Position numbers and translations under genes: made by a program
The notes under the pieces: generated by a model
What the model was told of the DNA's origin: nothing
Seen by the model: the letters and a program-made list of their open reading frames with translations, nothing else
Database searches by the model: none
Part shown: positions 11,591 to 30,654 of the stretch, piece after piece
Layout: every line of letters starts with the position of its first letter
How positions within the stretch are numbered: position 1 is the stretch's first letter
Source: a virus
Taxonomy: Duplodnaviria; Heunggongvirae; Uroviricota; Caudoviricetes
Strand: one strand, 5' to 3'
Length of the DNA: 38,307 nucleotides
Virus record (IMG/VR): IMGVR_UViG_2657245439_000017

Positions 11591-12112
11591 TCAGCCCCCG
11601 ATATTGATACGGTAGTCAGTCAGTTGATCAACACCGCCGACCCGGAAGATGTTGGCCAGATAGTCCAGTTGCAGCAGCTCTTCACCATCCAGTACCTGTC
11701 TGATATACGTGCAGGTGAAGCTACTGGAGAACTCGGCGTTCTCGTGCTGTTTGAACGTCCCCAGCGGGTTCTTCTTGAACATAATCGTCAGGAAGGTGAC
11801 CAGCGGGATTTCGTCAATCAGCCCCTGCGAGCTGTAGCGCTGGACGCTGGAACGACACTGCAGTGCCAGCGACCTGTACGGGTTCGCGGCAGACAGCATC
11901 GCATCGCGGTAAAAGCTGTTCCATTTGATTTCGCCTTCCAGTTTGTCAAAACCAGCCGGGAGTTCCACCTTACCCACCATCCCCAGCGCCTTGTGTTCCT
12001 GCATAATCATGGAGACATCGGGGAGTTTAACTTCCTCAGCCCGTCCCAGCAGGTTAGTACCATCCAGATAGATGTTGGCATTCGTGATGCGGTTTATCTC
12101 AATCTTTGACAT
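11591..12112 (-). CDS. Tail tube protein (P2 FII / Mu M-like)
   Basis: 173 aa; immediately downstream of sheath gene with overlapping start/stop. Confidence 0.8.
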   Translation of the reverse strand: MSKIEINRITNANIYLDGTNLLGRAEEVKLPDVSMIMQEHKALGMVGKVELPAGFDKLEGEIKWNSFYRDAMLSAANPYRSLALQCRSSVQRYSSQGLIDEIPLVTFLTIMFKKNPLGTFKQHENAEFSSSFTCTYIRQVLDGEELLQLDYLANIFRVGGVDQLTDYRINIGG

Positions 12113-25239: not shown

Positions 25240-25821
25240 CTAAAAAAAGAAGTGTATTATTGCCCAAACAGCTATAACGATGATTCCCAGCCCAAGAGCC
25301 GATTCTAACTTATCTTTGGCAGTCATTTTTACTGTTGTAGCGGGCGCAGGTAAGTCTTGCTGCTGTGGATTTTCTGTTAGTTGTTTACGAGAAGAAACAT
25401 CGCCCCTATTAGTTTGCTTCATGTTGATTACAGATGCGTTATGGGCATTATCAGCAGCAATTGACTGAAGTTTTACAAAAGTTTTTGAATCTGTTTTAGC
25501 CAGAAGTAACCTATTTCCCGTAAACATTGCCTTAAAAGTGATAGTTTTTTTCGTCTTGTCCGCCGCACCAAGCAAACCTCCAATGACCAACCCTGCACCA
25601 CCAAAGATTAATCCACCAAGCAAACCTGCGCCTGCCGCCTTACCTATACGGCTTTCCTCTTCACTATCCGCAAGTTCAATCGATAAAAGCTCTTCTTTCA
25701 GATTTAATACAATATTTTCAGGAAAGCCTTGTTTTGGTTTTTTGGCAAACACGATGGTACCGAACCCCATGCTTGCCCACCCTTTAGGAAAACTTCCTGC
25801 GATAACCTGAATCCCTGCCAT
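25240..25821 (-). CDS. Glycine-zipper membrane protein with C-terminal TM anchor (candidate membrane effector)
   Basis: GAGLLGGLIFGGAGLVIGGLLGA GxxxG-type zipper; C-terminal LGLGIIVIAVWAIIHFFF; start likely ATG at 25819-25821 (AAGGTG 6 nt upstream) rather than GTG at 25830. Confidence 0.65.
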   Translation of the reverse strand: MAGIQVIAGSFPKGWASMGFGTIVFAKKPKQGFPENIVLNLKEELLSIELADSEEESRIGKAAGAGLLGGLIFGGAGLVIGGLLGAADKTKKTITFKAMFTGNRLLLAKTDSKTFVKLQSIAADNAHNASVINMKQTNRGDVSSRKQLTENPQQQDLPAPATTVKMTAKDKLESALGLGIIVIAVWAIIHFFF

Positions 25822-25911
25822 GTTCATCACCTTTTACATTAAAATTTCAGAACGCAGCATGATGCCGCCTTTGTCTTTTTTCTGATCCCATGGTAATTCA
25901 GCTGTTATTTT

Positions 25912-26898
25912 CTATTTAAGAATAAAACGGTATTTACTGTCAGGAGTGCTTTGCTGATCAAGTAGCAGTGAACGACATGGAGCAGTCAAAACCCGAGCAT
26001 AACTACCATCAGGGCTTATGTTAATGTAACAAACCTTGCCCTTAACACTATAATTTTCGGGGACGGATGCCTTTGCTGATACAGTAAATTTAAGGGTATG
26101 CCAGCCCGTTTTTTGCTTGTAGCTTGAAACCGAATGGAAATCATCTGAGTACTTATTTAACCCTGGAAACATGCTGCGCAGTGCGGGGATGGAATCTTCT
26201 ATTATTTTATCGTTGGTTTTAATGTTAAAAACGCTGGTTTCAGTAGAAGCTACTGCTTTGGCATTTCCCCATTTACCAGCGAACACAATCATTCCCACGA
26301 AAAATATTGCTACAAGAACTAACACTCCCCCCAACACTACTACATGAGGCTTCCGGCTTCTGGTTGGTACAGTTGCGACTGATTTTGCACCGCTTTCCGA
26401 TGGAGGTGATAGAGTTTTACTCTCATCACGAATATTCAGCAGATCATCAAAATAACCAAACACAGCCTGCAACTGCTCTTTGTCTAGGCCTTTAAGATGG
26501 GTTGTACCGAAATGCTTCAGACAGTATCTGTCACGGTCAAGACGATACCCAGGGTCAGTAAGCGCCATTATTTTGCTGACCAGAAGATTACAGTCCTTCA
26601 TATTCTGGATCTGTTGTGCATATCTCTGAAGGATCTCAACCGCACCATGATAATCAGCCGCAGTCATTTCATTAACTGTTTTGGTATTAAGTTTCGTGTG
26701 GATCGTCATCCATAGCTCGCGCTTACTTTCCCCCAGATCAACCAATTCATCCATCAATCTGTGTAAATCGCGTTTTTGCAGCAACGAAATTGGTTGCTGG
26801 GCCGAAGGAAGTATGTCAGCAGAATAGTTATGAATGGTAACATCACCGCTGACAACGTTACCCACATCCCCGTTAACTGTTTGCTTCTCTTTACTCAT
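25912..26898 (-). CDS. Single-pass membrane protein (328 aa), cytoplasmic N-domain and extracytoplasmic C-domain, unknown function
   Basis: ATG at 26896-26898 overlaps repressor stop (ATGA coupling); central TM VVVLGGVLVLVAIFFVGMIVFAG; N-terminus shares GDV-GNV-G-VTI motif with repressor C-terminus. Confidence 0.7.
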   Translation of the reverse strand: MSKEKQTVNGDVGNVVSGDVTIHNYSADILPSAQQPISLLQKRDLHRLMDELVDLGESKRELWMTIHTKLNTKTVNEMTAADYHGAVEILQRYAQQIQNMKDCNLLVSKIMALTDPGYRLDRDRYCLKHFGTTHLKGLDKEQLQAVFGYFDDLLNIRDESKTLSPPSESGAKSVATVPTRSRKPHVVVLGGVLVLVAIFFVGMIVFAGKWGNAKAVASTETSVFNIKTNDKIIEDSIPALRSMFPGLNKYSDDFHSVSSYKQKTGWHTLKFTVSAKASVPENYSVKGKVCYINISPDGSYARVLTAPCRSLLLDQQSTPDSKYRFILK

Positions 26899-27356
26899 CT
26901 TCTCTTGGTATTTTTGTTCATTATTCCACCTGTTCCTATGGTTACGTTACCTTTGATAACATTCCCCAGAACATCTCCATGAATAACCTGTTCCGCCCGT
27001 TCTCTGGAGGAGCCAGTAGTCAAGGCCGACAAAACTGAACCTTTGACCTGTAATGGTGCCTGCCGGTAGTGCTGCAGTAACTCCATTTCATCACGTGATA
27101 AAGTTATACCTGATGACTCCCCGGTAAGAATGAACTGTACATTGGCCCCAATTCTTGCAAAGGCTGCAAGTAACTCACCTCCGGGAACAGCAACCCCTCG
27201 TTCATATTTCCCCCACATTTCTCTTGAAACGCCACAAAGGGCTGCTACTTCAGCCTGCTTGAGTGATAACCGCGAACGCTCAGCTTTGAACCGCGACGCG
27301 CAAAGAGAATCAAAATTCACATAAACCTCATTGACAATGAGAACAATAGTTCTCAT
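26895..27356 (-). CDS. Prophage repressor, XRE-family HTH (no S24 peptidase domain)
   Basis: HTH LSLKQAEVAALCGVSREMWGKYERG; divergent from early operon; ATG 27354-27356 has no upstream SD (possibly leaderless); operator palindrome overlaps its start. Confidence 0.75.
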   Translation of the reverse strand: MRTIVLIVNEVYVNFDSLCASRFKAERSRLSLKQAEVAALCGVSREMWGKYERGVAVPGGELLAAFARIGANVQFILTGESSGITLSRDEMELLQHYRQAPLQVKGSVLSALTTGSSRERAEQVIHGDVLGNVIKGNVTIGTGGIMNKNTKRR

Positions 27357-27359
27357 AAT
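27331..27359 (+). promoter_or_regulatory. Candidate sigma70 early promoter (-35 TTGACA 27331-27336, 17-bp spacer, -10 CATAAT 27354-27359)
   Basis: Consensus -35, near-consensus -10, correct spacing, about 45 bp upstream of Ner-like ATG. Confidence 0.5.
27337..27356. promoter_or_regulatory. Perfect 20-bp palindrome ATGAGAAC-AATA-GTTCTCAT, candidate repressor operator
   Basis: Lies in the spacer of the rightward early promoter and overlaps the repressor start codon. Confidence 0.55.
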
Positions 27360-27406
27360 CTATCACATATAAAACAAACATCATTGCATCAACAAAGGAG
27401 ACAACA

Positions 27407-27595
27407 ATGACTTCCGAACAAGTTAAAAATCTCTTCCGTCAGCGTGGTATCACGTTTACCCGCTGGGCCGAAGAACACGGCTACAGCCGCAATGAGGTCT
27501 ATCGTGTTCTCAATGGACAGACCAAAGCTCGTTACGGCAAAGCCCATGAAATTGCCGTAAAACTGGGATTAAAACCCACGTCAAATGCGGCATAA
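27407..27595 (+). CDS. Ner/Cro-like small DNA-binding protein
   Basis: 62 aa, HTH ITFTRWAEEHGYSRNEVYRVLNG; first gene of early operon divergent from repressor; AAGGAG RBS. Confidence 0.65.
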   Translation: MTSEQVKNLFRQRGITFTRWAEEHGYSRNEVYRVLNGQTKARYGKAHEIAVKLGLKPTSNAA

Positions 27596-27647
27596 ATTTT
27601 CCACATATGCAACAGGTTATCACATATTGCAAAAATGGAAATGTGAC

Positions 27648-27956
27648 ATGAGTAAAGTAAATATTTCCAGTTCTGGGACCCGCATCCTACGTGTACTCAA
27701 AGCTCTACGCGGTCATGCTCTGAACGGTGTTTCTAACGGTGAACTGGCATCAGCCCTGGGGGAGTCCCCGGCGAATATCAATCGAGCACTTAATACCCTT
27801 ATTGAAGAGGGACTGGCCATGAAATTAGAGAACGGACGTTTCGCACCGGGAATCCAGTTACTACAGATCGCCATGGCTCACAGTCACGAGATGGCGCGTG
27901 CACAGGATCGTATTAACGAAATCAACCAACGAGTTATTTCAGGTAGTCGTTTGTAA
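27648..27956 (+). CDS. Winged-helix DNA-binding protein (early)
   Basis: wHTH-like LRVLKALRGHALNGVSNGELASALGESPANINRALNTLIEEGL; ATG 27648 preferred, alternative ATG 27585. Confidence 0.55.
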   Translation: MSKVNISSSGTRILRVLKALRGHALNGVSNGELASALGESPANINRALNTLIEEGLAMKLENGRFAPGIQLLQIAMAHSHEMARAQDRINEINQRVISGSRL

Positions 27957-27966
27957 GGAGTAATCA

Positions 27967-28881
27967 ATGGGACGCACCAAATCACCCGTTAACACTGAAC
28001 TGAATGTTGAGGTTCCGCTGTCAGATAACATCAATGTCAATTTGAACGCTATGACACAGCATCGCATGGAAATTATGCAGCAGTTTGGTGATGGACTGCC
28101 TTATGAACGTGATCGCATTGTTCACGAAGCACGTTTTTATATGGCGCAGAGTGCTGAATCTATGCTGGAAGCGGGTAAGCGGCTGATCATCTTAAAAGAA
28201 AATGAGCCACACGGTGATTTTACAAACATTTTAGAAAATGAACTCGGACTTGCACCACAAGTTGCTCGCCGCATGATGCAAGCCAGTATGAAGTTTTTGG
28301 GAGAAGGTGATGAGCCAACAAAACGCTCAACGTTGAGCGTTTTGGGGAAAGCCAAACTGTACGACCTGATGGTTCTGGATAATGAAGAACTTGATGAATT
28401 GGCCGACGGCGGCACAGTTGCCGGCCTGACGCTTGACGACGTTGATCGCATGTCAGTACGTGAATTGCGTCAGGCCCTGCGCGAAGCGCGCGAAACCAAC
28501 GCAGCACAACAGCGCGTACTCGCTGACAAAAATGAAAAAATAGACTCACTCTCCACCAGACTGGAGAAGAAATCCCGTATTCAGTCGCCTGAGCCTGATG
28601 AAGAGGTTAAGAAGCTGCGGGCGGAAGTGACAGCATTAGCGGTTGAGGCGGAATCTGCTATCGCCGTTCGACTGTCCAGCGCTTTTGAGACGCTGTGCGC
28701 ATATTGTGCTGAAAACATGATTGATACCCCCAGAGACTTCATGGCAGGCCTGGTCTGTCAACTGGAAAGCACAGCGCGTAGCCTGCGCTCCACATTTGAC
28801 CTGCCGGATGAGCCAACAGGCAATGCCGCGCCTTCATGGCTGACTGAGCCGACGCCACAGATTAACGGGCTGGAGGCATAA
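27967..28881 (+). CDS. Hypothetical early protein (304 aa) with central coiled coil
   Basis: AGGAG RBS before ATG; immediately upstream of transposase. Confidence 0.55.
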   Translation: MGRTKSPVNTELNVEVPLSDNINVNLNAMTQHRMEIMQQFGDGLPYERDRIVHEARFYMAQSAESMLEAGKRLIILKENEPHGDFTNILENELGLAPQVARRMMQASMKFLGEGDEPTKRSTLSVLGKAKLYDLMVLDNEELDELADGGTVAGLTLDDVDRMSVRELRQALREARETNAAQQRVLADKNEKIDSLSTRLEKKSRIQSPEPDEEVKKLRAEVTALAVEAESAIAVRLSSAFETLCAYCAENMIDTPRDFMAGLVCQLESTARSLRSTFDLPDEPTGNAAPSWLTEPTPQINGLEA

Positions 28882-28884
28882 CCA

Positions 28885-30654
28885 ATGAATGCTGCCCTGA
28901 CTGAACGACTGGTTTATGTCGCCCGCGCGGCACGTGACGCGGGGCATGGTAAACGCGGTGCAATATACGACGCTGCCTGTGCTGAACTTGGCATGTCCCG
29001 CGCCACTCTGCTGCGCAGGCTGAAGGAGGTCTCTGTGACTGATAAACGCAAAAAACGCGCTGATGCCGGACGCAGCGCCCTGACCCGCGACGAAGCCGCG
29101 CTGATATCTGCCACACTGCGTGAGGCCACCCGCAAGAACGGTAAACGCCTCTATTCCATCGCAGATGCAGTGGAAACCCTGCGGGCTAACGGCTTTATCA
29201 CCGCAGGCAGAACAGATGAAACCACCGGTGAGTTTTTCCCGTTGTCTGAAGATGCCATCAGCCGTGCTCTGCGTAACTATGGCCTGCACCCGGAACAACT
29301 GGATGCTCCTGCACCGCATACCGAAGTGGCCAGTCTGCACCCCAATCATGTCTGGCAGATTGACGCCTCACTCTGCACGCTTTACTACCTGAGCAATGGA
29401 CATAAAGGGCTGCAGGTGATGGACAGCGCGAAGTTCTACAAGAACAAGCCCGCTAACCTTGCCCGTATCGCCAGTGACCGCGTGTGGAGTTACGAGATTA
29501 CCGACCATGCCAGCGGCTGGATTTACGTTGAGTATGTGACGGGCGCGGAATCAGGTGAGAACCTGTGTTCTGTGCTTATCAACGCCATGCAGGAGCGTGG
29601 CGGCGCAGACGTGCTGCACGGCGTGCCAAAAATACTCTATCTCGACCCCGGCTCGGCAAACACCGCGGGTATGACGAAAAACATGTGCCGCTCACTGGGC
29701 ATCGACCTGATAGCGCACAAGCCGCATAACGCCCGCGCCACCGGACAGGTGGAAAAGGCGCGGGACATTATCGAACGCAAGCTGGAGCCGGGTCTGAAGT
29801 TCCGGCCGGTTCACAGTCTGGAAGAACTCAATGCGCTGGCCGCGAAATGGCGCAGCCACTTTAACGCCACGGCTGTTCACAGCCGCCACGGTAAAACCCG
29901 CACGGATATCTGGCTGAAGATTACTGCTGAGCAGCTGAAAAAAGCGCCTTCCGTTGAGGTATGTCGTGAACTGGCTGTGGCGGCACCAGAACTCCGCAAA
30001 GTCACGCCAAAACTTCGTGTCTCGTTCCGGGGCACTGAATTTGACGTATCAACGGTACCGGGCGTACTGGTCGGTGAAAAACTGATGATTACCCGTAACC
30101 CGTGGCGCAGCGATGTGGCACAGGTGGTTCTGACCGGTGAGGACGGCCACGAGACGTTCTTCCTGGTCGAAGAAGTCAGAAAGAACGAGTTTGGCTTTGC
30201 TGAAGGCGCGGCGGTATTTGGCGAAAGTTACAAAGCCCTGCCGGAAACCCCGGCGCAGATGGCGGCAAAAGAAACCGAAGCGCTGGTCACCGGTACAGAC
30301 AACGCCGCAGATGCAGCTGCCGCACGCAAGGCGAAGGCGCTGCCGTTCGGCGGGCGGCTTGACCCATATAAACATATTGATGACGCCACACTTCCGGCCT
30401 ATATGCCGAAGCGAGGTCAGGCCTCTGACGTACGCGGGCCGCGCACTGAACAACGTCCCATGACTCATGTGGAGGCCGCGAAAGCCCTGCGCGATAAGTT
30501 CAGCGCCGACGGCCTTACCTGGACGCCGGAACATTACCGCCAGTTAACGGCACAGTATCCGGACGGCGTACCGGAAGCCGCACTGGATGAAGTCATGGCC
30601 ACGCTGACCACGCCGGCCCGCAGCAGCGTTATCAGCATTGTTAACGGCAACTGA
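28885..30654 (+). CDS. DDE transposase (retroviral-integrase-like core; phage transposase A equivalent)
   Basis: 589 aa; candidate catalytic triad in HVWQIDAS, LYLDPGSANT and ATGQVEKA; N-terminal HTH region; GGAGG RBS. Confidence 0.85.
   Translation: MNAALTERLVYVARAARDAGHGKRGAIYDAACAELGMSRATLLRRLKEVSVTDKRKKRADAGRSALTRDEAALISATLREATRKNGKRLYSIADAVETLRANGFITAGRTDETTGEFFPLSEDAISRALRNYGLHPEQLDAPAPHTEVASLHPNHVWQIDASLCTLYYLSNGHKGLQVMDSAKFYKNKPANLARIASDRVWSYEITDHASGWIYVEYVTGAESGENLCSVLINAMQERGGADVLHGVPKILYLDPGSANTAGMTKNMCRSLGIDLIAHKPHNARATGQVEKARDIIERKLEPGLKFRPVHSLEELNALAAKWRSHFNATAVHSRHGKTRTDIWLKITAEQLKKAPSVEVCRELAVAAPELRKVTPKLRVSFRGTEFDVSTVPGVLVGEKLMITRNPWRSDVAQVVLTGEDGHETFFLVEEVRKNEFGFAEGAAVFGESYKALPETPAQMAAKETEALVTGTDNAADAAAARKAKALPFGGRLDPYKHIDDATLPAYMPKRGQASDVRGPRTEQRPMTHVEAAKALRDKFSADGLTWTPEHYRQLTAQYPDGVPEAALDEVMATLTTPARSSVISIVNGN

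Follow-up and report, generated by a model that had tools for sequence, protein, structure and literature searches.

We analysed the divergent regulatory region of a viral sequence from the class Caudoviricetes, IMG/VR record IMGVR_UViG_2657245439_000017, the whole of which (38,307 nucleotides, referred to below as the window) is identical to prophages of Escherichia coli IAI39 and CE10. The region separates a leftward gene, whose product is a helix-turn-helix (HTH) protein of the Cro/C1 type and the putative repressor, from a rightward ner-like gene. The ner-like gene is followed on the same strand by genes for an IclR-type HTH protein, a DUF3102 protein, an rve-domain transposase (PHROG 310) and a transposition ATPase (PHROG 296), and the lysis, head and contractile-tail genes occupy the minus strand to the left of the repressor. 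The ner-like DNA is 70% identical to ORF17 of Pseudomonas phage B3, and a close relative, phage PhiKM, for which a literature search found no paper, is classified in Bcepmuvirus. The sequence marks this as the immunity region of a transposable E. coli prophage of the B3/BcepMu-like kind, and the terms ‘repressor’ and ‘prophage’, used in a preliminary description made from the DNA letters, were apt. The early (lytic) promoter, Pe, and the operator predicted within it are laid out as follows.

27331–27336, plus strand: −35 hexamer TTGACA of Pe, predicted by a sigma-70 consensus scan.
27337–27356, no strand: predicted operator, an 8-4-8 dyad ATGAGAAC-AATA-GTTCTCAT, the putative site for a dimer of the adjacent repressor.
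27354–27359, plus strand: predicted −10 hexamer CATAAT of Pe, separated from the −35 hexamer by a 17-bp spacer.
27365–27367, plus strand: predicted Pe transcription start, placed 7 nt past the −10 hexamer.

Pe matches the sigma-70 consensus at 11 of 12 positions and is the sole match of at least 11/12 in the window when both strands are scanned; shuffled windows contained a mean of 0.21 such matches, with at least one in 18% of shuffles. The operator consists of ATGAGAAC (27337–27344), AATA (27345–27348) and GTTCTCAT (27349–27356). Its arms are fully complementary, its central 4 bp are asymmetric, and its last three bases are the first three of the Pe −10 hexamer. The near-consensus rightward promoter TTGACA-17-CATAAT and the perfect 8-4-8 palindrome filling its spacer had both been pointed out in the preliminary description, and the score, coordinates and complementarity hold on re-examination. 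Since neither feature is significant alone, the case for an operator has to come from their exact superposition in a divergent regulatory gap and from conservation elsewhere.

We fetched 80 loci through the Ner-like anchor from Enterobacterales, Pseudomonas, Xanthomonadales, Burkholderiales, Nitrosomonadales and others (numbered below with the prefix L). Promoters were scored at 9/12 or better within 200 nt of ner, and dyads were required to be perfect, with arms of at least 6 bp, a loop of at most 6 and a centre no more than 2 bp from that of the spacer. Such a promoter was present in 73 of 87 ner-anchored loci (the window and B3 included), and 41 of the 73 promoter-bearing loci carried a spacer-centred dyad, in 31 distinct spacers. 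Overall, 41 of 75 dyad centres (55%) fell within the 2.5% of the sequence that is the spacer centre. The −35 equivalents found in relatives at the same distance from ner are TTGACA, TTGATA, TTTACA and TTGACT, and the B3 early promoter reads TTGACA-GGTGCAATATTTGGCAC-CACTAT.

The recognition helix GVSRE(M/I)WG(K/R)YERG is present in the repressors of the window, Serratia L056 and Pseudomonas L026, L028, L044, L055 and L057, and these are exactly the loci whose spacer reads (A/T)(T/A)GAGAA(C/T)-N4-GTTCTCAT. Within this group the arms are kept and the central 4 bp are free (AATA, TATA, TAGA, TTAA, CAAA and TTTG). Other recognition helices are paired with other dyads:

Helix GASYKSQLRWEKDE, dyad TATCCCA-N4-TGGGATA.
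Helix GASRKSQIRWEKDE, dyad GTCCCA-N4-TGGGAC.
Helix GVKKLAQLKYEQGE, dyad GGTATC-N6-GATACC.
Helix GISNGGISQIENG, dyad TGCTCATAATTATGAGCA.

Across 30 non-redundant loci, helix identity was correlated with spacer identity (Mantel r = 0.70, with 0 of 5,000 permutations as high), a statistic that is not corrected for phylogeny.

This prophage type occurs in about 12% of complete E. coli genomes (624–638 of 5,426), and the cassette described here in 125 of the 5,426 (about 2%), at scattered chromosomal positions. Of 638 genomes, 569 have a tail-tube stretch (the sole virion segment compared) of at least 99% identity, but no fewer than four immunity cassettes occur in the prophage type. A further set of about 490 E. 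coli genomes matches the window only from exactly position 27355 rightwards, at 81–84% identity; to the left of this position these genomes carry unrelated HTH repressors and different dyads. The alignment places the mosaic break at the −10 hexamer, exactly at the right end of the dyad. At the equivalent site the heteroimmune prophages read TTGATA-TGCTCATAATTATGAGC-AATAAT, TTTACA-TATCCCATTATTGGGAT-AATAAT or TTGACT-GGTGAGGTAATCTGCAC-CATAAT. A natural E. coli variant of the operator changes only a central base, at 27348. We conclude that the adjacent HTH repressor very probably uses the dyad as its operator, set in the spacer of the early promoter; that earlier suggestion gains comparative support from the shared architecture of related loci, the covariation with the recognition helix and the mosaic break.

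In Pseudomonas sp. NPDC087346 (L026), the dyad upstream of ner extends to 14-2-14, TGATTATGAGAACTAGAGTTCTCATAATCA. The −35 and −10 regions of this locus are mirror images, and a promoter-like site, CTGATT-17-CATAAT, is found on the opposite strand of the same 29 bp.

The repressor itself resembles a well-characterized class of operator-binding proteins. It matches Pfam HTH_31 and HTH_3, its best PDB match by sequence is the N-terminal domain of P22 c2 (E = 9e-5), and the best fold match of its structural model is 3JXB, the c2–operator complex (root-mean-square deviation 1.5 Å over 64 columns). The model comprises a five-helix HTH domain at residues 3–66 (high confidence), two helices at residues 76–102 and a disordered tail. 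A Pfam search found no S24 peptidase domain in the repressor, so RecA-mediated, LexA-like self-cleavage is not expected. P22 c2 binds dyads with the central 4 bp uncontacted, and the fold match together with the free centre fits a repressor dimer on a 20-bp site. The locus thus has the features of a P22 c2/434-type operator: a dyad with a tolerant centre that overlaps the core of the predicted lytic promoter, an adjacent Cro/C1 repressor gene, and an operator that changes with repressor specificity.

The operator stands alone. No second copy had been noticed nearby, and this extends to the full window, in which the 20-mer pattern is unique even at three mismatches. The half-sites GAGAAC and GTTCTC, a search for which across the prophage had been recommended, occur at chance level in the window (27 against 26.8 expected). 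Scanning the window for GAGAAC-N(0–14)-GTTCTC returned nothing beyond the operator and a GAGAAC-N5-GTTCTC sequence, GAGAACTCGGCGTTCTC, at 11727–11743. We rejected the latter as an extra operator: it lies inside the tail-tube gene and its 5-bp centre is the wrong spacing, and because it is also unchanged in the heteroimmune AR_0086 prophage (L088, 7195–7211) we regard it as a coding coincidence. A 26-bp perfect palindrome, CAAAACGCTCAACGTTGAGCGTTTTG, at 28319–28344 inside the DUF3102 gene was likewise dropped as a second regulatory site because neither L005, a relative with 96% identity, nor any other fetched locus has it.

Two other perfect palindromes were seen in the window. One, a 7-1-7 sequence (CTCATTG-A-CAATGAG, 27327–27341), covers the Shine–Dalgarno sequence of the repressor, the −35 hexamer and the left operator arm; it is probably incidental, as it is not kept in Pseudomonas loci with the same operator. 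The other, of 22 bp (CCCCCATTTCATGAAATGGGGG, 37120–37141), lies within a long right-end open reading frame (36292–38307).

The position of the operator relative to the repressor gene depends on where translation of the repressor begins. The longest leftward open reading frame opens at ATG 27356 (CAT at 27354–27356 on the plus strand), and the Prokaryotic Genome Annotation Pipeline (PGAP) starts its 153-amino-acid entry WP_001259268.1 at the same codon, leaving 50 bp to the ner-like ATG at 27407. If this start were used, the repressor would begin inside the operator on a leaderless or near-leaderless mRNA, like lambda cI made from PRM, and operator, −10 hexamer and start codon would be one composite element. 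ATG 27356 indeed lacks an upstream Shine–Dalgarno sequence, as the preliminary description observed, weak leftward hexamers would put a transcription start near 27357–27360, and a few near relatives (for example P0005 and P0016) keep the frame open. However, homologues mostly begin 12 codons later, with M/V-N-F-D-S-L-C, which corresponds to GTG 27320 in the window. A start codon always occupies this position (GTG in the window and in L026, L028, L055 and L057, TTG in L044, ATG in L056), in each case with a Shine–Dalgarno sequence of GAGG, GGGG or AGGTGA about 5 nt to its 5′ side, and the B3 repressor is annotated from a GTG immediately left of the −35 hexamer. Serratia L056 has a TGA stop codon directly before the conserved ATG, hence between that codon and the operator ATG. 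The Pseudomonas loci keep the operator, but 1 nt nearer the repressor start and in another frame, where it reads ENSSSHNQ rather than MRTIVLIV. The residues of the extension are best explained as translation of conserved DNA elements, namely the operator, the −35 hexamer (TGTCAA = V-N) and the Shine–Dalgarno sequence (GAGG = E-V), and the leftward hexamers that would serve a leaderless transcript score only 6–7/12, under the scan threshold. The repressor gene would then be arranged as follows.

26895–27320, minus strand: repressor gene as revised, GTG start, 141 amino acids; most likely the true gene.
27326–27329, minus strand: repressor Shine–Dalgarno sequence GAGG (CCTC on the plus strand), 5 nt upstream of the revised start.
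27321–27356, minus strand: the 12 codons added by PGAP, MRTIVLIVNEVY, most likely non-coding.

The PGAP start is probably 12 codons too long, and we consider a leaderless start at ATG 27356 unlikely, whether as the principal start or as the source of a minor isoform. The revised start widens the divergent gap from 50 to 86 bp and leaves the operator outside the repressor gene, on its upstream side. The earlier statements that about 50 bp separate the divergent starts, and that the −10 hexamer and operator overlie the repressor start codon, are correct for the annotated ATG but fail for the conserved GTG, and the proposed leaderless mRNA gives way to a start 36 nt downstream with its own Shine–Dalgarno sequence. 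The same over-extension is seen in several database homologues; in L003 the annotated coding sequence even overlaps the ner start.

We also considered whether another protein binds the dyad, for instance the Ner-like or IclR-like protein or a factor of the host. The first two are HTH proteins as well, and in phage Mu Ner binds between Pe and Pc. Yet the ner and IclR-like genes are 81–84% identical in DNA between prophages with wholly different dyads, and conserved proteins of this kind cannot be the readers of a variable dyad. The dyad instead tracks the recognition helix of the repressor across genera, and it does not fit the LexA box CTGT-N8-ACAG (read by eye). Moreover, conserved motifs that could serve conserved regulators are found elsewhere, around the start of the early operon:

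27361–27370, plus strand: 10-mer TATCACATAT, copy 1, over the predicted Pe +1.
27379–27391, plus strand: leader motif CATCATTGCATCA, directly upstream of the ner Shine–Dalgarno sequence.
27396–27400, plus strand: ner Shine–Dalgarno sequence AGGAG, read from the sequence.
27407–27595, plus strand: ner-like gene encoding a 62-amino-acid HTH protein (PHROG 925), a homologue of B3 ORF17 and the first gene of the early operon.
27618–27627, plus strand: 10-mer TATCACATAT, copy 2, in the gap between ner and the IclR-HTH gene.

The window contains exactly two copies of the 10-mer TATCACATAT and nothing else within one mismatch of it; Xenorhabdus L019 and Photorhabdus L046 show the same pairing, and the motif is also retained from one heteroimmune E. 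coli prophage to another. The leader motif, in the form CATC(A/T)TTGCATCA, abuts the ner Shine–Dalgarno sequence in E. coli, Pseudomonas, beta-proteobacteria, Gallionellaceae and Xanthomonadales despite their differing operators, and a leader length of about 40 nt is kept across the family. By analogy with Ner in Mu, a conserved regulator, Ner-like or IclR-like, may bind at TATCACATAT, and CATCATTGCATCA is a candidate Ner site or proximal Pc element. Recognition of the dyad by a protein other than the repressor is, in our view, quite improbable. Least probable of all is a palindrome that works chiefly through RNA or DNA secondary structure (such as a 5′ hairpin of the leftward transcript) or that is functionless and due to chance: the leftward RNA does fold to an 8-bp hairpin (−13.1 kcal/mol, z = −2.7) and about four perfect dyads with 8-bp arms are expected per window, but no T-run follows the hairpin and a terminator scan found none, structure predicts neither half-site conservation with a free centre nor covariation with the recognition helix, and 41 related loci with a dyad in the same place are not what chance predicts.

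A single operator in so short a gap bears on the supply of repressor. Given the 86-bp gap, any proximal leftward promoter would either overlap the operator or have its transcripts cross it within about 40 nt, and with that geometry the single operator should also limit proximal repressor transcription, in keeping with the earlier suggestion that one operator may control both promoters. Leftward hexamers read by eye at 27364–27395 on the minus strand, TTGATG-17-TATGTG and TTGTTG-17-TTATAT, score 6–7/12. The predicted autolimitation agrees with RNA-seq of phage Fc02, a member of the B3 family, in which pE fires upon repressor inactivation, the proximal promoter pC2 overlaps pE and is apparently active only after repressor inactivation or induction, and transcription of the repressor in the lysogen starts at a distal promoter, pC1, and runs antisense through gene 10 and ner (PMC9936078).

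Several points weigh against an immunity switch built on this one operator. Promoter and dyad are each compatible with chance when taken alone; perfect dyads with arms of 8 bp or more number six in the window, compared with 3.8 ± 1.9 in shuffled sequence. A perfect spacer dyad is missing from 32 of the 73 promoter-bearing loci, some of which (L003 and L006, for example) show only imperfect GGTG...CACC symmetry, and the covariation statistic carries the phylogenetic limit given with it. A lone operator offers no obvious cooperativity. Consensus scans of 27000–27800 and 25800–29000 found no minus-strand promoter scoring 9/12 or better on the right-hand side of the repressor gene, and the best conserved leftward −10 hexamer in a position-wise conservation scan of 65 non-redundant loci was GATTAT (27355–27360), the mirror of the Pe −10, with a poor −35; no promoter for the repressor was located. 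Finally, a literature search returned no binding, footprint or transcript-start data for this phage or its family members, and no experimental mapping of operators of B3-like or BcepMu-like phages.

With these points taken into account, we hold it highly probable that this region acts as the immunity switch of a B3/BcepMu-like transposable prophage, with one dyad operator inside Pe and a repressor made from GTG 27320. Pe would drive the ner-like, IclR-HTH, DUF3102 and transposase A and B genes. A dimer of the 141-amino-acid repressor, by way of its P22 c2-like HTH domain, would occupy the two 8-bp arms, leave the central 4 bp uncontacted and sterically bar RNA polymerase from the −35 and −10 hexamers, so that the lytic and transposition genes would be off. 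The repressor would be translated behind its GAGG Shine–Dalgarno sequence, with the operator upstream of the gene, and the operator would also limit proximal transcription of the repressor; binding itself, the transcription starts and this autoregulation are steps that we infer. Repressor gene, operator and −35 hexamer would together form an exchangeable immunity cassette, and the −10 hexamer, leader and ner a constant scaffold common to heteroimmune phages. Taken by itself, this is a genuine but conventional operator of the P22 c2 type, an ordinary design that involves no new regulatory principle.

A wider proposal can be made only tentatively, and we think it more doubtful than probable: that B3-like and BcepMu-like phages share a two-layer modular device, in which the exchangeable cassette is fitted to a scaffold whose leader bears conserved motifs for the Ner-like or IclR-like regulators, the recombination joint lies inside the promoter at the −10 hexamer, a sole operator shuts both Pe and the proximal repressor promoter, repressor is supplied by distal antisense transcription, and immunity groups extend across genera. 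Were the distal supply to run antisense through ner, as the Fc02 RNA-seq suggests, such a device would be bistable without cooperative operators or positive autoregulation. If true, the GAGAAC-N4-GTTCTC specificity common to phages of E. coli, Serratia and Pseudomonas would imply immunity groups that cross genera. The analysis proposes an operator, a promoter and a start codon, each specific and testable, for a prophage type that about 12% of complete E. coli genomes carry in related form, and it corrects a start codon that automatic annotation has spread (WP_001259268.1 and relatives). The roughly 30 natural repressor/operator pairs on one promoter scaffold may be used in studies of HTH–DNA recognition, and a table of them could also serve in sequence-based prediction of cross-immunity between phages or supply orthogonal repressor parts.

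Immediately downstream of the repressor gene lies a co-oriented neighbour:

25912–26898, minus strand: gene for a 328-amino-acid membrane protein (PHROG 10002), whose ATG overlaps the repressor stop codon (ATGA).

From this overlap, the membrane-protein gene is probably co-transcribed with the repressor in the lysogen, for which repc-e4 of phage Fc02 provides an analogue (PMC9936078). The C-terminal tail of the repressor, AEQVIHGDVLGNVIKGNVTI (26895–26960, minus strand), resembles the N-terminus of this next product, KEKQTVNGDVGNVVSGDVTI (26830–26898, minus strand), with 11 of 21 residues identical. Homologous repressors have alternative tails, of two or three kinds.

Compared with known systems, the switch shares with P22 c2 and 434 its conserved outer half-sites, a variable, A/T-rich 4-bp centre and an operator laid over the lytic promoter. 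It differs from them in having one operator, single-copy in the window, where the lambdoid tripartite arrangement has three that are adjacent, related and cooperatively bound, and in a repressor that lacks the self-cleaving S24 C-terminal domain. Positive autoregulation of the PRM type is geometrically implausible at this switch.

The likeness to Mu lies in gene order and lifestyle: a repressor that is leftward and divergent from ner, a rightward early promoter leading to ner and then to transposase A and B (transposase and transposition ATPase), and insertion at many chromosomal positions. The proteins are of another kind. The Mu c repressor is of a different type from the Cro/C1 HTH proteins, whereas the repressor here hits HTH_31 and HTH_3; the Ner-like protein has no match to the Mu-Ner Pfam family at E ≤ 0.01, its only hit being to HTH_31 below the cut-off, and no solved homologue of it was detectable by sequence. 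The Mu immunity region has three operators, O1–O3, in contrast to the single dyad in an 86-bp gap found here.

The closest counterparts are B3 and Fc02 (Beetrevirus) and the Bcepmuvirus PhiKM. Differences from B3 and Fc02 include the E. coli host, a BcepMu-like myovirus module with tail sheath and tube genes, and the GAGAAC/GTTCTC operator specificity; the gene after ner encodes an IclR-HTH protein rather than B3 ORF16, and promoter scans of 25800–29000 and the 65-locus conservation scan found no counterpart of the Fc02 promoter pC1. In common with B3, Fc02 and PhiKM, a P22 c2-like repressor diverges from a ner-like gene across a gap of about 90–106 bp, transposase A and B follow in the early operon, and the repressor gene points in the same direction as the lysis and structural genes. 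The defining features of the B3/BcepMu-like arrangement are all present in the window: a ner-like homologue, a promoter with a dyad in its spacer, as in pE of B3, and a P22 c2-like repressor whose start is immediately left of the −35 hexamer.

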